Positions 31,765-40,310 of a stretch of DNA of 64,000 bases are shown in pieces. Below the pieces are notes generated by a model. The model searched no databases, was not told where the DNA came from, and saw only the letters and a list, made by a program, of their open reading frames with translations. Every line of letters begins with the position of its first letter. Positions within the stretch are counted from its first letter, which is position 1. A program made the position numbers and the translations under genes. The DNA comes from Escherichia coli (GTDB lineage: Bacteria; Pseudomonadota; Gammaproteobacteria; Enterobacterales; Enterobacteriaceae): assembly GCF_001677475.2 (NCBI RefSeq), contig NZ_CP015229.1, one strand, 5' to 3'.

Positions 31765-31851
31765 TGGTGCGAGGGGGGGGACTTGAACCCCCACGTCCGT
31801 AAGGACACTAACACCTGAAGCTAGCGCGTCTACCAATTCCGCCACCTTCGC
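31765..31851 (-). tRNA. leuV: tRNA-Leu (anticodon CAG)
   Basis: Reverse complement reads GCGAAGGTGGCGGAATTGGTAGACGCGCTAGCTTCAGGTGTTAGTGTCCTTACGGACGTGGGGGTTCAAGTCCCCCCCCTCGCACCA; encoded CCA. Confidence 0.95.
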
Positions 31852-31885
31852 ACAGTCATCTTACTTTTTTTGATATCGCCTCGTT

Positions 31886-31972
31886 TGGTGCGAGGGGGGG
31901 GACTTGAACCCCCACGTCCGTAAGAACACTAACACCTGAAGCTAGCGCGTCTACCAATTCCGCCACCTTCGC
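31886..31972 (-). tRNA. leuP: tRNA-Leu (anticodon CAG), one-base variant in variable arm
   Basis: Same 87-nt tRNA with aagaacac instead of aaggacac on plus strand. Confidence 0.95.
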
Positions 31973-32000
31973 CCAGTGCGAGCAATATCAACGTGGTTTT

Positions 32001-32087
32001 TGGTGCGAGGGGGGGGACTTGAACCCCCACGTCCGTAAGGACACTAACACCTGAAGCTAGCGCGTCTACCAATTCCGCCACCTTCGC
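32001..32087 (-). tRNA. leuQ: tRNA-Leu (anticodon CAG)
   Basis: Third tandem copy identical to the first. Confidence 0.95.
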
Positions 32088-35042: not shown

Positions 35043-35427
35043 TTGCCTCCCCCCCGTTGATGGGTAAAATAGCCGCAATTTTTCGTTTTCAACAAGCGCG
35101 GCGCGATGCCGCTTACTCAAGAAGAAAGAATTATGACGTTGTCTCCTTATTTGCAAGAGGTGGCGAAGCGCCGCACTTTTGCCATTATTTCTCACCCCAA
35201 TAATTAAGCCTAAATTAAAGCTCTTTTACTTTTTCAAAGTCCTTTCAGTTAATTGATGTTTGGTTTTATAAGTCATTTAAATACAGTTAGTTATGTGGCT
35301 TCTTTAATTGAAAATTCTTTCATGTAACTTTAAATCGATCAGGTTGCTTTCATCAAAAATCTGTACATATGCTTGTACATAATGTACAAAGCAGCAGAGG
35401 TGTTTTGCGATTTGTACAAGGTGAGTA

Positions 35428-36663
35428 ATGGCGCTGTCTGATGCGTGGTTGCGTTCAGTCGTTGGAAAGGAACGTGATAAGGTTTTGGTTAAATCCGATC
35501 GTGATGGTCTGTCTGTCAGAGTATCACCGAAAGGTCGCGTAGTGTTCCAATATCGTTATCAATGGGCAGGGAAAGGTGAGCGCCTTGATATCGGAACTTA
35601 CCCGGCAACTGGATTAAAAGAGGCCAGAGAAGAAGTTATCCGTCTCCGTGGTGAACTCGAGTCAAACCGCAATCCACGATTAGTCAAGCAGGCTGAAAAA
35701 CGAAAAGCTACTGAAGCCATGACGGTAGAGTCTGTGATCCGTGCCTGGTATGAAGCATATTGTGTAAAAAATAAAAAAGGTTCTGAACAGATACTCCGCT
35801 CGTTTGAGCTGCACCTGTTCTCTAAAATCGGGAATATCCCTCACGATGCAGCTACATTGCATGATTGGTTAGAAGTCCTGGAGCCTCTTAGCACCAAGAC
35901 TCCAGCAATAGTAGACCGATTGCTAATTAACGCAAAGCAGGCTCATGTCTGGGCGTATAAGAGAAAGCTCATTGAAACTCGCCCACTGTCGGATATCACG
36001 GGTAAAGATATGGATATCCGTAAAGGTCAGAAAAAACGGTTTCTGACACATGATGAAATTAACATCCTTTATGCTGCGATCGATGGTTCTCGAATGGTTC
36101 CTAAATACCGAGCCTTCATTAAACTATTGCTGCATTTTGGTTGCCGTAGTTCAGAGCTAATTACTGCTAGGGTGGATGATTTTGATTTCATAAATAAGGT
36201 ATGGACTGTACCACCAGAACGACATAAGACTGGGGACATAACAGGCGAACCGCTAAAGCGGCCCATTATTGAACCGGTTGAAGAGCTTATAAAATACGTT
36301 ATCTCTATGAACAACGGTTCCGATATGCTTTTTACTAAGGAAGGAAGCAGGGAGCCAGTTGGTCGGACATCATTGCAGTCGCTGCCTTACAATTTAATGC
36401 AGTTCGCATGGCGACGTTTGGGGTATCAATTTCCTCATTGGTCTCTTCATGATTTGAGACGAACAGCACGAACAAACTTTTCTGATCTTACTGCTCCTCA
36501 TATTGCTGAAATAATGCTTGGTCATAAACTGCCAGGTGTATGGCAAGTTTATGATAAGAGCGATTATCTAGAAGAACAGCGTAAAGCTTACTGGGCATGG
36601 TGGGAGAGGGTTGAATCGATCGTTACTTGTACTGACTTAATCTCCAACGGACAGTTTGCGTAG
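35428..36663 (+). CDS. int: Phage tyrosine integrase
   Basis: ORF track 411 aa; C-terminal catalytic region with HDLRRTARTN and LGH..VYD motifs; RBS AAGGTGAG. Confidence 0.85.
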   Translation: MALSDAWLRSVVGKERDKVLVKSDRDGLSVRVSPKGRVVFQYRYQWAGKGERLDIGTYPATGLKEAREEVIRLRGELESNRNPRLVKQAEKRKATEAMTVESVIRAWYEAYCVKNKKGSEQILRSFELHLFSKIGNIPHDAATLHDWLEVLEPLSTKTPAIVDRLLINAKQAHVWAYKRKLIETRPLSDITGKDMDIRKGQKKRFLTHDEINILYAAIDGSRMVPKYRAFIKLLLHFGCRSSELITARVDDFDFINKVWTVPPERHKTGDITGEPLKRPIIEPVEELIKYVISMNNGSDMLFTKEGSREPVGRTSLQSLPYNLMQFAWRRLGYQFPHWSLHDLRRTARTNFSDLTAPHIAEIMLGHKLPGVWQVYDKSDYLEEQRKAYWAWWERVESIVTCTDLISNGQFA

Positions 36664-36821
36664 CCAGAGCGTAATCATATCTGCCAGTCCGCTGCGGATA
36701 CCTTGTGTACTGGGTTTTTAGCCAGACTACGTTAACCGGTAGCTTCAGTATTTGGGGTGTCGGCAGGAGTTTGATGGTTTATTGGGTTACTGTGGGACTA
36801 AGGATGTAGGGATGCCAATCG

Positions 36822-37955
36822 ATGAATTATGAAAAATATCATAGCACAAACAGAAGCAAGGGTTTGCGAACCTTCTGCTACTTAATTTATTATGTGCAGG
36901 TGATTTTTAATGTGATGAAGTGTTTTATGACTCGCGGAAACTTTGATTTTATAAACTCTAACGTGGTTTTCTCAGAAGCCGATAAGTCATTGTGGATTGA
37001 TCTCATTAACACCGATTGTATTTGGTATGATATGATAATTAATCCTCCTGATGATATAAGAACAAATAAGATAATAAAGAACTATCTCAGAATTATGGAA
37101 AAATATACGAGGGAAAGCTGTGAAAAGAGATTTATTTATTTCTTAGGTTCAAGAAAAAAAGTGAGGTTTTCAACCAAGAAACAGCCTAGGTATAACCCAT
37201 TCACAAAAAATATAGTATTCACTCTGTTGATTGGCAAAGAAGAGCGAAAGCTTCGGATAAAATATTCCTTTTGCACGTTTACGCAGAATGGGGTAGTGAA
37301 GGTAACTCCAAATGTTAGAGTAACTGAGAAGTTTCTCTACATTGAATATGAAAATGGCAATTTATGTGTGATGTCAGTTCATGATTTCGTAAACGGACAT
37401 TATATTGATTTAGGAATTCATACAGAAGTGCATTACGTAGGATATACACGTCATCCGCATCGGCGCCCTGTTGATTTTATTCACCGTGGCTTATCAAAGA
37501 TGCTGTATAGCGTTTCAAATGACGATAATGATTTTTTTGTTTGTTTTAGTATATTTAATCCAAGGATTATATCTCTGAATAATAAATGTAATGTGGTCTT
37601 TAATATTTCAAATTCTCTACTGGATGAAATTGATGTTGATAATGAGGGGAGAATTATTGAAAACTGCTTAATACGTTACTTTGATCCTAAGCTTCAAGAT
37701 GATGACAAGGAAAGTAAAAGGTCAGATTTAAATAAAATGTTTATGGACCTGGTGGAAAATAAAAAAATTAAAAAAATATACGTTAATTTTCAATATGAAA
37801 GGAATAATGAGTATTTCTGCTTTTACTCTAAAGTTGTTCCGCCGAAATTTCATCATTTCTTTGTGTTGGATTTTTCTGATGGCAAGATAAATATTGATAG
37901 AGACCAGGATATGATGACTCAGATGGCATTGTGCATGGGGTATTATAATTATTAA
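36822..37955 (+). CDS. Hypothetical protein, AT-rich orphan gene adjacent to integrase (candidate moron)
   Basis: ORF track 377 aa; ATG start; GC far below prophage average; no recognisable domain. Confidence 0.45.
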   Translation: MNYEKYHSTNRSKGLRTFCYLIYYVQVIFNVMKCFMTRGNFDFINSNVVFSEADKSLWIDLINTDCIWYDMIINPPDDIRTNKIIKNYLRIMEKYTRESCEKRFIYFLGSRKKVRFSTKKQPRYNPFTKNIVFTLLIGKEERKLRIKYSFCTFTQNGVVKVTPNVRVTEKFLYIEYENGNLCVMSVHDFVNGHYIDLGIHTEVHYVGYTRHPHRRPVDFIHRGLSKMLYSVSNDDNDFFVCFSIFNPRIISLNNKCNVVFNISNSLLDEIDVDNEGRIIENCLIRYFDPKLQDDDKESKRSDLNKMFMDLVENKKIKKIYVNFQYERNNEYFCFYSKVVPPKFHHFFVLDFSDGKINIDRDQDMMTQMALCMGYYNY

Positions 37956-38164
37956 TATTTCGCCTGATGCCAACTCAAAATCTTTTTTGTCGCATCCATT
38001 GTGGATTAATATTCAGAGGTAAGGGGTATCTGCGGAATTTATATTTTGCAGGATGAGCATACAATACATGATATAACATCTGTTTTTGGCACAGAGCATA
38101 TAGTCAGATTATGTTTAGTTCTGTGCCATAGATGGATATTATCTCACCTCTTGGCTAACTCTCA

Positions 38165-38359
38165 TTACTCAATAACTCCAGCAAATCTGTATATTTTGCG
38201 TGATGCCCATTTATTTGGGCAGGATTTAATATCAGGATCTGGAAAATCTGGCCTGTATTTCTGGCCTGTCCTCCTGTTTACGCTGTTCCAGCGAAGCACC
38301 GTCGATATTGAAACGCCACAGAATTCGGCGACTTGTTTTGTTGTCATTAAGTTGCTCAT
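38165..38359 (-). CDS. xis: Excisionase / AlpA-family DNA-binding protein
   Basis: ORF track 64 aa; TTKQVAEFCGVSISTVLRW HTH typical of phage Xis/AlpA. Confidence 0.7.
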   Translation of the reverse strand: MSNLMTTKQVAEFCGVSISTVLRWNSVNRRTGQKYRPDFPDPDIKSCPNKWASRKIYRFAGVIE

Positions 38360-38393
38360 TGCTACCCCTCCAGCGGTTGTTCAGTTGAAAGAC

Positions 38394-38930
38394 TCATGCG
38401 CATGTGCGTAACTCCGATAACTCGTTAAAGCGTTCCATAAACATCCCGTAGGCATGGCCTGGCGACAGTGGAATAACTTTGAACATCTCTGTGGCAGAGA
38501 TGCCTTCCAGTACTGGCCAGAAAGAGCCATCATCAAGCCCGAGATCGCGGCGTTCGGTTGCCAGCATGATGAGATCGGCATATTTCACGGGTGTACTCAT
38601 AACCGGGGGTAACCCGTATTTCTCACGGATTACTGTGTCTATTTTTTCTTCCATCCGTTTATAGTCAGGAAGAAAGCGTTTCAGTGGTGCGGGGATGTCC
38701 TGGCAATACGCTTCTGTTGCATCATGCATTAACGCTTCAAAAGCAAATTCCTGCGGTACCAGCTGGCTGCAAAGCACCGCATGTTGGGCGACGCTGTAGA
38801 AGTGTGAAAGATGACCGGCAAAGCGACAGATATTTGAAAGGGAAACCGCGATATCGTTAATATCGATGTCGTCTTTATTTATCCTGTCATAATAAAAATG
38901 CTTCCCGGAAAAAGTTTTAATAAATGACAT
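38394..38930 (-). CDS. HD-domain phosphohydrolase (YfdR-like)
   Basis: ORF track 38394..38957; ATG at 38930 with GGAG RBS gives 178 aa; H..HD metal-binding motifs (AQHAVLC, LMHDATE). Confidence 0.6.
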   Translation of the reverse strand: MSFIKTFSGKHFYYDRINKDDIDINDIAVSLSNICRFAGHLSHFYSVAQHAVLCSQLVPQEFAFEALMHDATEAYCQDIPAPLKRFLPDYKRMEEKIDTVIREKYGLPPVMSTPVKYADLIMLATERRDLGLDDGSFWPVLEGISATEMFKVIPLSPGHAYGMFMERFNELSELRTCA

Positions 38931-39057
38931 TTTGTTCTCCACGTATATGCGTTGCACCGTGCTGAATTCTGGTAAAAGGAAGCCCTCACCATCTGGCGAT
39001 TATTGGGTAAATTATGTTGACATAAATGCCCCCGCAGGGGCATTTGCAGTAATGAAA

Positions 39058-39882
39058 TCAGGCGGTGAAAGTACCAATAAAGGTTTCTACTTTGCTGTCT
39101 TTGAATTTCTCAACAAGCAGATCACGAAATTCGTTAGCCATTTCTTCCTGCACCGCTTCCAGCTGAATAATGCGCAGAACCAGTACAGGACGATCGCCAG
39201 TGATAATGCTGAGGCGTAATTTAAACGGACGTTCTTTCAGACCTTCAAACGGAACGCATTTAAATTCAAATGCCACTGGCATAATGTCTTTGGTCTTCGC
39301 TTCGACAGACTCCATCAGGGAGCGTTTGCCGCTGAAGTCATTATCTTCAAAATCAGCGGTCTGGTTCGCTTCAATTGTGATTTTACGGATCGCCGCAGCC
39401 GCTTTGGTTGCCTGAATGGCGTCACCATTAGCATCAAAGCCCACAAGGTAGTCGGCCCAGTCTTCAATCCATTCTGCCAGTGACTTCTGGGAGTTACGCT
39501 CGCCGTTAACAGACAACAGGGCAGAGAACGGTGCTGTCTTTTTCAGTTTGAGAGTGGCGGTGTTATCTGCGTGACCTGGTTCATCAATAGTACCCAGGTT
39601 AAGCACACTGACTGCTCGCATATTATCGGCATCGATAAAGCAGCGGGTGCCTTCATCTGCAAGATCTTTAGAATAACGGGTAAAGTCATCGATGCTGGCA
39701 GTGGAAAGCGCACCACGGAAACGGAAGCGATTTAAATTAAATTTTTCCAGATCATGAATGCGGAAATTCTCAGGCAATGCCACAGCATCGGCACCAATCT
39801 TACTGATAATTTCATTAACACCCTGAGCAGAAATAAGGGCATGGATTTGATTAATTGCGGTTGCGTCTAAGTTCTGAGACAT
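39058..39882 (-). CDS. Hypothetical prophage protein (YfdQ-like, 274 aa)
   Basis: ORF track; good RBS GTGAGGA; length and position match yfdQ as recalled. Confidence 0.5.
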
Positions 39883-39947
39883 AATAAGTCCTCACTATAT
39901 AAAGATATTCAGTGATGAGATAAATAATCGGTTAATTAAGAACGATA

Positions 39948-40310
39948 TTAATGACCTGCTGCGCGGAGTTTTCCGTCAGGTTCACCGGCAAGAGTCAGTA
40001 ATTGTCCCTGGTCTTCCTGCAGAATAGTCAGGCGACCACCGCGATTGACATACATCGGCGTTTCGGTGGTGTCTTCTTCGGAAATTTTCCCGCGGTTAGT
40101 CGGGCGAACATATGAGAGTTTGTGTTTGATTTTCACACGGTTCTCATCAAATGGTTCGATTTCCAGGTTGAGTGAGACCTTACCTTTGGTTTTCGTGTTC
40201 ATCACACCTGAAGCGACTTCACTGAGAACTGCGCCGATTTTGGTTTCAAATACGCCGCCGTCCAGCTCCCCGATAAATGCCTGCACATCAGTACTGCGTT
40301 CGCTAGCCAT
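39948..40310 (-). CDS. Hypothetical prophage protein (YfdP-like, 120 aa)
   Basis: ORF track 39948..40496; internal ATG with GAGGAGCAGCAA RBS gives MASERSTDVQAFIGELDGGVFETK... Confidence 0.45.
   Translation of the reverse strand: MASERSTDVQAFIGELDGGVFETKIGAVLSEVASGVMNTKTKGKVSLNLEIEPFDENRVKIKHKLSYVRPTNRGKISEEDTTETPMYVNRGGRLTILQEDQGQLLTLAGEPDGKLRAAGH

Follow-up and report, generated by a model that had tools for sequence, protein, structure and literature searches.

A candidate single-gene anti-phage nuclease carried as cargo between the integrase and excisionase genes of an Escherichia coli prophage

We analysed a window of 64,000 nucleotides of Escherichia coli DNA (contig NZ_CP015229.1 of assembly GCF_001677475.2) and focused on an AT-rich gene lying between the integrase gene (int) and the excisionase gene (xis) of a prophage. 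A preliminary description of this DNA had presented the gene as a 377-aa orphan with no recognisable domain and had suggested that it could be defence or virulence cargo. We propose that it encodes a single-protein anti-phage defence nuclease of an undescribed family, carried as prophage cargo, and we give this proposal about an even chance. The defence reading rests on a variable slot in which one sibling prophage carries an established defence gene, on homologs in defence islands and on a nuclease fold.

The gene and its prophage setting

The insertion site of the prophage is the 5' end of prfC. The gene order on the left is rsmC, holD, rimI and yjjG, followed by a prfC fragment at attL, a tyrosine integrase and the gene itself; on the right, the excisionase is followed by yfdR, yfdQ, yfdP, cI and cro on the minus strand. 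The main features of the locus are the following.

35133..35201, + strand: duplicated 5' prfC fragment at attL, 22 codons (from its translation; annotated by PGAP as a partial pseudogene)
35428..36663, + strand: tyrosine integrase, left conserved flank of the slot (phrog_1, E 4.4e-74; annotation)
36692..38075, + strand: mobile single-gene cassette of 1.38 kb, consisting of the gene, a leader of ~235 bp and a trailer of ~120 bp
36822..36926, + strand: spurious 35-codon N-terminal extension, part of the 5' leader and not conserved as coding
36927..37955, + strand: true coding sequence, 342 codons plus stop, with the PGAP start; uncharacterised PHROG 7779 family
38165..38359, - strand: excisionase of 64 aa, right conserved flank of the slot (phrog_1553, E 1e-34)
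38394-40310, - strand: early-left genes yfdR (5'-deoxynucleotidase), yfdQ and yfdP

The phrog_1 and phrog_1553 matches and the prfC fragment at attL agree with the position between integrase and excisionase at prfC given in the preliminary description. Its statement that transcription opposes the early-left operon was likewise correct, as the gene is convergent with the minus-strand xis/yfdR/yfdQ/yfdP operon. We take the translation of 35133-35201 to be the N-terminus of E. coli PrfC, and a replacement 5' end of prfC is presumably supplied at attR, beyond the window. The yfdR/yfdQ/yfdP genes also occur together in the K-12 cryptic prophage CPS-53/KplE1, and the integrase is directed away from attL and convergent with xis here as in that element. 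The span 36700-38100 is 100% identical to Escherichia phage PhiR63_1 (PV340573.1).

On the + strand, 36822..37955 forms an open frame without interruption, and this frame was the source of the 377-aa length. That length is an artefact of the open upstream frame. The PGAP annotation starts at Met36 of the long open reading frame (ORF), at 36927, giving 342 aa, and the PHROG 7779 match spans residues 36-377 of the 377-aa reading. The N-terminus MxRGxF is common to 40 homologs at the Met36 start, and in Klebsiella, Proteus, Budviciaceae and Serratia in-frame stops occur 3-8 codons 5' of the equivalent of Met36. In addition, the Serratia copy has indels within the putative extension, and nucleotide homology with the Salmonella, Klebsiella and Proteus genes begins only at 36915-36925.

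The gene is strongly AT-rich, as had been noticed earlier. Its GC content is 0.32, and 400-nt segments across it range from 0.30 to 0.34, the most AT-rich stretch of the region; by comparison, the chromosomal flank to the left has about 0.53-0.56 and the neighbouring prophage genes 0.42-0.50. The best sigma-70-like match lies at 36864-36893, inside the spurious extension in the 5' leader.

A mobile cassette in a variable slot between int and xis

A conjugative plasmid of Serratia liquefaciens (NZ_CP068149) shows homology over exactly 36692-38075, with 84% identity. As the homology is limited to this interval, the gene moves as a unit with its leader and trailer. A comparison of the prophage and plasmid copies shows about 84% conservation of the leader (36692-36926), close to that of the gene; its GC content is much higher than the gene's, and the Serratia copy carries a 15-bp insertion within it. 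The leader contains no conserved ORF, an Rfam search with it was negative and its folding energy is unremarkable against shuffled sequences (z = -0.8); it might serve as a promoter, a regulator-binding site or a recombination site. Only one ORF is present in the cassette, and the int-xis interval encodes no methyltransferase. Apart from short repeats at chance level, the cassette ends have no terminal repeats, and no tandem repeats were found. Of the features expected of a toxin-antitoxin system, the cassette contains no partner ORF, no repeat array and no structured RNA.

The slot was defined by comparison with five sibling prophages at the same prfC/yjjG site. The left breakpoint falls at 36683-36693, 20-30 bp past the int stop codon, and the right breakpoint at 38061-38090, just past the 3' end of xis (at 38165 in one sibling). 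That is, the limits of the cassette coincide with the variable slot between int and xis. These sharp breakpoints bear out the int-proximal accessory position that had been proposed. The preliminary description had also suggested a comparison of presence and absence at prfC; the gene is replaced by other cargo in all five siblings, which carry five different cargos, and the slot is never simply empty. One cargo is a dGTPase-family protein (PADLOC dGTPase, E 1.7e-104), known to be anti-phage. Another is a DUF4365 protein that weakly resembles a restriction endonuclease domain associated with Argonaute (E 8.9e-9). The remaining three have no PADLOC match and are further candidate defence genes.

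L021:6397-7650, + strand: uncharacterised slot cargo, 417 aa
L022:6591-7586, - strand: uncharacterised slot cargo, 331 aa
L024:6396-7944, - strand: uncharacterised slot cargo, 436 + 81 aa

The slot thus combines the properties by which prophage defence hotspots are recognised, namely conserved flanks, variable content and a known defence alternative.

Domain architecture and a divergent GIY-YIG-like core

We built an AlphaFold2 model on a 40-sequence alignment, and it is of high confidence (predicted local distance difference test score, pLDDT, 90.1; predicted template modelling score, pTM, 0.88). The parts of the protein read from the model and the alignment are listed below; the catalytic roles are proposed.

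36927..37121, + strand: N-terminal region of helix, beta-hairpin and long helix, residues 1-65 (AlphaFold2 secondary structure), with conserved W22, L26 and W33
37362..37766, + strand: divergent GIY-YIG-like nuclease core, residues 146-280
37380-37382, + strand: H152, proposed catalytic
37434-37436, + strand: Y170, proposed catalytic
37464-37466, + strand: R180, proposed catalytic
37482-37484, + strand: H186, proposed catalytic
37659-37661, + strand: E245, proposed catalytic
37704-37706, + strand: D260, proposed catalytic
37767..37952, + strand: C-terminal beta module, residues 281-342, with conserved S301, H310 and F312

Residues 66-145 form an all-beta domain in the model, with a DUF971-like fold that here has no conserved Cys/His zinc site. 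Conservation along the protein peaks in this domain, at RFIYFLxSRKKVRF (F69, Y71, R76, K78, R80 and F81), and the invariant basic/aromatic hairpin of the domain may bind nucleic acid.

Searches of the query against Pfam, NCBIfam and PADLOC gave nothing significant, nor did sequence searches of the PDB with the query and the family profile. The earlier statement that the gene has no recognisable domain therefore stands for Pfam, NCBIfam and PADLOC; a remote GIY-YIG core was found by more sensitive comparison. In the alignment the core reads hHYVGyTknPxxRPxxxxHxG ... E-EG-iiE--lI-YF----Q--N. The spacing of the motifs is GIY-YIG-like, with 10 residues from Tyr to Arg and 15 from Glu to Asn, as in I-TevI, and all 40 aligned sequences share the second motif (Y170-V-G172) and R180. 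E245 aligns with the I-TevI glutamate E75, and E240 is conserved too. In the E. coli clade, Y170, R180, H186, E240 and E245 are invariant.

The I-TevI-type reference profile consisted of nine annotated domains, of which the T4 member is 100% identical to T4. Alignment of residues 140-275 to this profile with hhalign gave a score of 27.3 (E 1.6e-4), compared with a mean of 10.5 (standard deviation 2.0, maximum 19.1) for 150 column shuffles and 16.0 for the reversed alignment. A relaxed hhalign run pairs Y170, G172, R180, H186, E245 and position 260 with I-TevI Y17, G19, R27, H40, E75 and N90, respectively. Among the relatives, 1 of 47, a divergent member, reached Pfam PF01541 at E 1.8e-4; other matches were weak (0.09-0.4) and always covered the YIG...R segment. 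The candidate bridging members P0189 and P0140 gave weak matches only, on the YIG...R motif (E 0.4 and 0.14).

Structural comparison points the same way. With Foldseek, the AFDB50 database yielded full-length structural relatives of ~320 aa, and four of these (E 1.8e-16 to 3.8e-10) carry the UniProt name GIY-YIG protein. The alpha/beta fold of the core resembles solved GIY-YIG domains, the best GIY-YIG structural match being T4 EndoII. We consider the assignment to the GIY-YIG fold very probable and are somewhat less certain that the active site is intact; nuclease activity is predicted from the modelled core.

Family, distribution and selection

The gene is not an orphan, as it had been called. 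A word-indexed search gave 47 family clusters at 90% identity, and an exhaustive HMMER search of 1.84 billion representatives gave 160 proteins at E <= 1e-3, 58 of them at E <= 1e-30; the family comprises about 160 clusters at 50% identity across Proteobacteria. Its hosts include Enterobacterales, Vibrionaceae, Acinetobacter, Pseudomonas, Burkholderiales, Arcobacter and others. Nearly all members are 300-345 aa long, and they are labelled hypothetical in every source. A search of a 5.8-billion-protein index with a profile from the divergent alignment found no relatives outside the family and no Pfam-annotated bridge.

Between E. coli and Serratia the pairwise ratio of nonsynonymous to synonymous substitution (dN/dS) was 0.20, and comparisons of the Salmonella, Klebsiella and Proteus copies with one another gave 0.12-0.17; these values indicate a protein-coding gene under purifying selection. 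The GC content of the gene is below that of its flanks by 6-25 points in 12/12 hosts examined.

Among 5426 complete E. coli genomes, the gene occurs in 61 and its integrase family in 699 (about 13%). The ORF is intact, at >=95% identity, in about 60 complete genomes, and the exact protein sequence occurs on at least 1000 contigs. Integrase alleles of >=99% identity occur in 60 genomes, near the gene count of 61, and the near-equality of these counts suggests that one prophage lineage carries the gene in E. coli. By tblastn, the gene was found in 1 of 50,697 phage genomes. In IMG/VR (2.9 million contigs), 14 loci were found, all at least 98% identical, all at a prophage end and all of one prophage lineage. 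The gene is not a phage core gene.

Disrupted copies were also seen. In E. coli 2015C-3121 (L046:1623-3533) an IS1 element interrupts the gene near codon 52 of the 342-aa reading, and in genome H15 an IS1 element likewise lies inside the 36700-38100 span. Truncated copies of 251-293 aa occur in Shigella and some E. coli.

Neighbourhoods in other bacteria

Most family members lie on chromosomal islands, integrative and conjugative elements (ICEs) or plasmids beside bacterial defence systems. The informative loci are as follows.

Robbsia andropogonis: BrxR and BilABCD, the gene, two reverse transcriptase genes
Klebsiella variicola: reverse transcriptase and type I restriction-modification (HsdRMS), the gene, Tlde1/Hcp, ScoMcrA-like HNH
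Salmonella Carmel: within an ICE, adjoining cytosine methyltransferase / DUF4928 / Vsr
Proteus mirabilis: CTD6/MC2 conflict genes, rve integrase and DUF927, near smpB
Acinetobacter baumannii: adjoining a Tn7-like element and DUF4007 with a large ATPase
Pseudomonadales metagenome-assembled genome: CcdAB and PIN

No neighbour gene is conserved across the homolog loci examined, indicating that the gene acts as a single-gene system. In the Robbsia island (L003:3969-13129), BrxR is a WYL-type regulator, Bil is a four-gene ubiquitin-like system, and the reverse transcriptases, of 430 and 661 aa, are DRT-like.

Comparison with known systems

According to a survey of 2024, single-gene GIY-YIG defence is represented by three systems, PD-T4-3, PD-Lambda-1 and Uzume (bioRxiv 10.1101/2024.10.26.620412). 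PD-T4-3/CMoRE of E. coli (PDB 9u75; PMC12923530) is a type IV restriction enzyme made of one GIY-YIG protein; its nuclease is N-terminal, and a second, C-terminal domain reads 5-hydroxymethylcytosine (5hmC) and its glucosylated form (ghmC) (PMC12923530). The order is reversed in our protein, where the core occupies residues 146-280 and the candidate sensor has a DUF971-like fold; it has 342 aa against 248 aa for CMoRE, and no sequence similarity between the two was detected. The protein resembles PD-Lambda-1 in being a single-gene system, and UzuA in this respect and in having the GIY-YIG domain in the C-terminal half (UzuA residues ~186-282, DefensePredictor supplement). It differs from Uzume and PD-Lambda-1 in having no PADLOC model match, a separation made at the level of models and descriptions. 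The lack of a PADLOC match thus sets it apart from all three known systems.

Compared with the GIY-YIG superfamily (PF01541, CL0418: I-TevI, UvrC, T4 EndoII, Eco29kI), the family has His in place of the first Tyr in 37/47 members; the insert between the two motif strands is ~7 residues longer and includes a helix, and a further insert precedes the Glu helix. The slot resembles the P2/P4 hotspots (Rousset et al. 2022, PMC9122126) and the prophage systems of Vassallo et al. 2022 (PMC9519451) in its conserved flanks and interchangeable single-system cargo; its setting is different, namely the int-xis interval of a lambdoid/CPS-53-like prophage that integrates at prfC. In the searchable literature we found nothing on the protein family, the int-xis slot, the phage name or the protein accession, and no matching accession appears among the DefensePredictor supplement entries listed. 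ECOR13 is mentioned in Vassallo 2022 (PMC9519451) and in a 2026 Nature paper, where it is a test host and not the gene.

Three known types of system were rejected. A type II restriction-modification system does not fit, as there is no methylase in the cassette and no conserved neighbour; a toxin-antitoxin system does not fit, as there is no partner ORF or antitoxin RNA; and a homing endonuclease such as I-TevI or the Seg proteins has a different domain order and would not be expected in a slot that is never empty.

Weighing the interpretations

Several observations weigh against a defence nuclease. The GIY-YIG assignment is remote: the query has no PF01541 hit at E <= 10, and the full-length hhalign probability is just 23-50%. 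Foldseek on the predicted structure had been suggested in the preliminary description, and it produced the AFDB relatives described above; against the PDB it gave nothing significant. In the first motif, I151-H152 (S-V-H) is aligned to I-TevI I5-Y6, with the strand register taken from a low-confidence global hhalign alignment. Position 152 is Tyr in 5/47 members and His in the 37 already mentioned, and position 260 is Asn in most members and Asp in the E. coli clade. A sub-branch of five proteins (P0120, P0122, P0123, P0167 and P0173) has degenerate catalytic positions (Y-x-G, Arg, His and Glu). The query and ten divergent relatives gave no match at E <= 1 among 5027 PADLOC models, candidate PDC families included. 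The scan for promoters and terminators gave no signal above chance (8 sigma-70-like sites versus 7.8 expected from shuffles), and silencing in E. coli is conceivable at such a high AT content. The copies disrupted by IS1 or truncated in some genomes indicate that the gene is dispensable and decaying in some lineages. Finally, the Arcobacter, Budviciaceae, Psychrobium and Aeromonas loci were uninformative.

Four other explanations were weighed. The gene might be a selfish cassette: a free-standing GIY-YIG endonuclease of the homing or addiction type, propagated through cleavage of empty sites and of no use to host or phage. Homing endonucleases classically include GIY-YIG enzymes, and the best sequence-profile match is I-TevI-type; the unit is compact, has identical limits in prophage and plasmid, is AT-rich in every host and is scattered among unrelated loci. 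However, the architecture is opposite to that of homing GIY-YIG enzymes, since the nuclease is not N-terminal and no NUMOD or helix-turn-helix tail was detected. The sibling slots are filled with unrelated cargo, including the dGTPase, and do not alternate between filled and empty, which fits recombinational exchange. Together with the lack of terminal repeats and long-term purifying selection across orders, this makes the selfish cassette unlikely in our judgement. A nuclease that benefits the phage, through host DNA degradation, recombination or counter-defence in lytic growth, is slightly less likely still. T4 EndoII, the best GIY-YIG structural match, is a phage enzyme that degrades host DNA, and the gene lies within an inducible phage deposited as a complete genome, PhiR63_1. 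The distribution speaks against it: apart from the single phage genome and the single IMG/VR lineage, most family members reside on islands, ICEs and plasmids beside bacterial defence systems, and the gene is missing from about 90% of the prophages that carry this integrase family. Furthermore, transcription opposing the early-left operon is unlike the positions of lytic functions.

We find it just as improbable that the protein is a toxin or another conflict effector with no link to phages, acting between bacteria or stabilising plasmids, or that it binds DNA but is catalytically dead. In favour of this reading are the CcdAB and PIN neighbours in a Pseudomonadales genome, the Tlde1/Hcp pair of the type VI secretion system (T6SS) in Klebsiella, the branch without catalytic residues and the His in place of the first catalytic Tyr. 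Against it, the cassette has no antitoxin or immunity ORF, repeat array or structured RNA, the protein has no secretion signal or T6SS-associated domain, and Y170, R180, H186, E240 and E245 do not vary in the E. coli clade. The degenerate sub-branch retains the N-terminal domains and the C-terminal H-x-F module and has a long insert; from its sequences, it is possibly a non-catalytic paralog. Least likely of the four is that the gene is silenced and decaying in E. coli, a passenger that no longer has a function there. Its 32% GC, the absence of a convincing promoter and the IS1-disrupted and truncated copies agree with such a passenger, but about 60 complete genomes have an intact ORF, the exact protein is found on at least 1000 contigs, dN/dS is 0.12-0.20 and the leader is 84% conserved. 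Nothing was found in support of virulence cargo, the other role that had been suggested. Defence cargo, arrived at through guilt by association and a predicted nuclease fold, is the best reading that we can offer, and the part of the preliminary description that pointed to it holds by slot, islands and fold, that is, by association.

Proposed mechanism and significance

In the proposed defence system, a stand-alone nuclease of 342 aa would consist of an N-terminal region with a DUF971-like beta domain, a GIY-YIG core ('S-V-H ... Y-V-G') and a C-terminal beta module. The gene travels as a 1.38-kb cassette with its own leader and occupies the int-xis cargo hotspot of the prfC prophage; it would be expressed from the lysogen as a single-protein anti-phage system. 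The N-terminal part might recognise a feature of the invading phage DNA, for example a modified base or a structure, or else a trigger produced by the phage, and the GIY-YIG core would then cut DNA, so that the superinfecting phage is blocked while the unmodified host and prophage genomes are spared. Without a methylase, immunity protein, antitoxin or RNA partner, the protein would have to recognise a non-self feature or be inactive until infection. The model of a sensor joined to a GIY-YIG nuclease, with the N-terminal domains sensing, is drawn from the CMoRE precedent and from the partnerless nuclease; the sensing function of the N-terminal domain, protection against phages and its trigger are inferred, as is nuclease activity. 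The carrier prophage would be spared under a modification-dependent or a trigger-activated mode alike.

The protein is a credible candidate for a fourth single-gene GIY-YIG defence family, located in an undescribed int-xis hotspot. A stronger version is possible and, in our view, doubtful: a fourth structurally distinct class, with a DUF971-like reader of phage DNA or protein and His for the first Tyr, in a slot that is a defence hotspot with further new systems. If confirmed, a new family and a new sensor domain would be added to PD-T4-3/CMoRE, PD-Lambda-1 and Uzume, and such enzymes can become tools, as CMoRE has been proposed for 5hmC detection. Confirmation would also make the int-xis junction of a prophage group found in about 13% of complete E. 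coli genomes (699/5426) a defence hotspot, with at least three more uncharacterised cargos at the junction that could be mined. Taken alone, the gene is a well-supported candidate among many and conceptually unsurprising.

Other observations in the window

The excisionase ORF (38165-38359, - strand) is unannotated both in the PhiR63_1 GenBank record and in the RefSeq genome examined. The PhiR63_1 record has instead a 121-aa ORF at 38046-38411 on the + strand, which overlaps xis and is probably spurious. Three tandem tRNA-Leu(CAG) genes lie at 31765-32087 on the - strand, between yjjZ and rsmC; this trio belongs to the ordinary E. coli chromosome and has no relation to the prophage attachment site.

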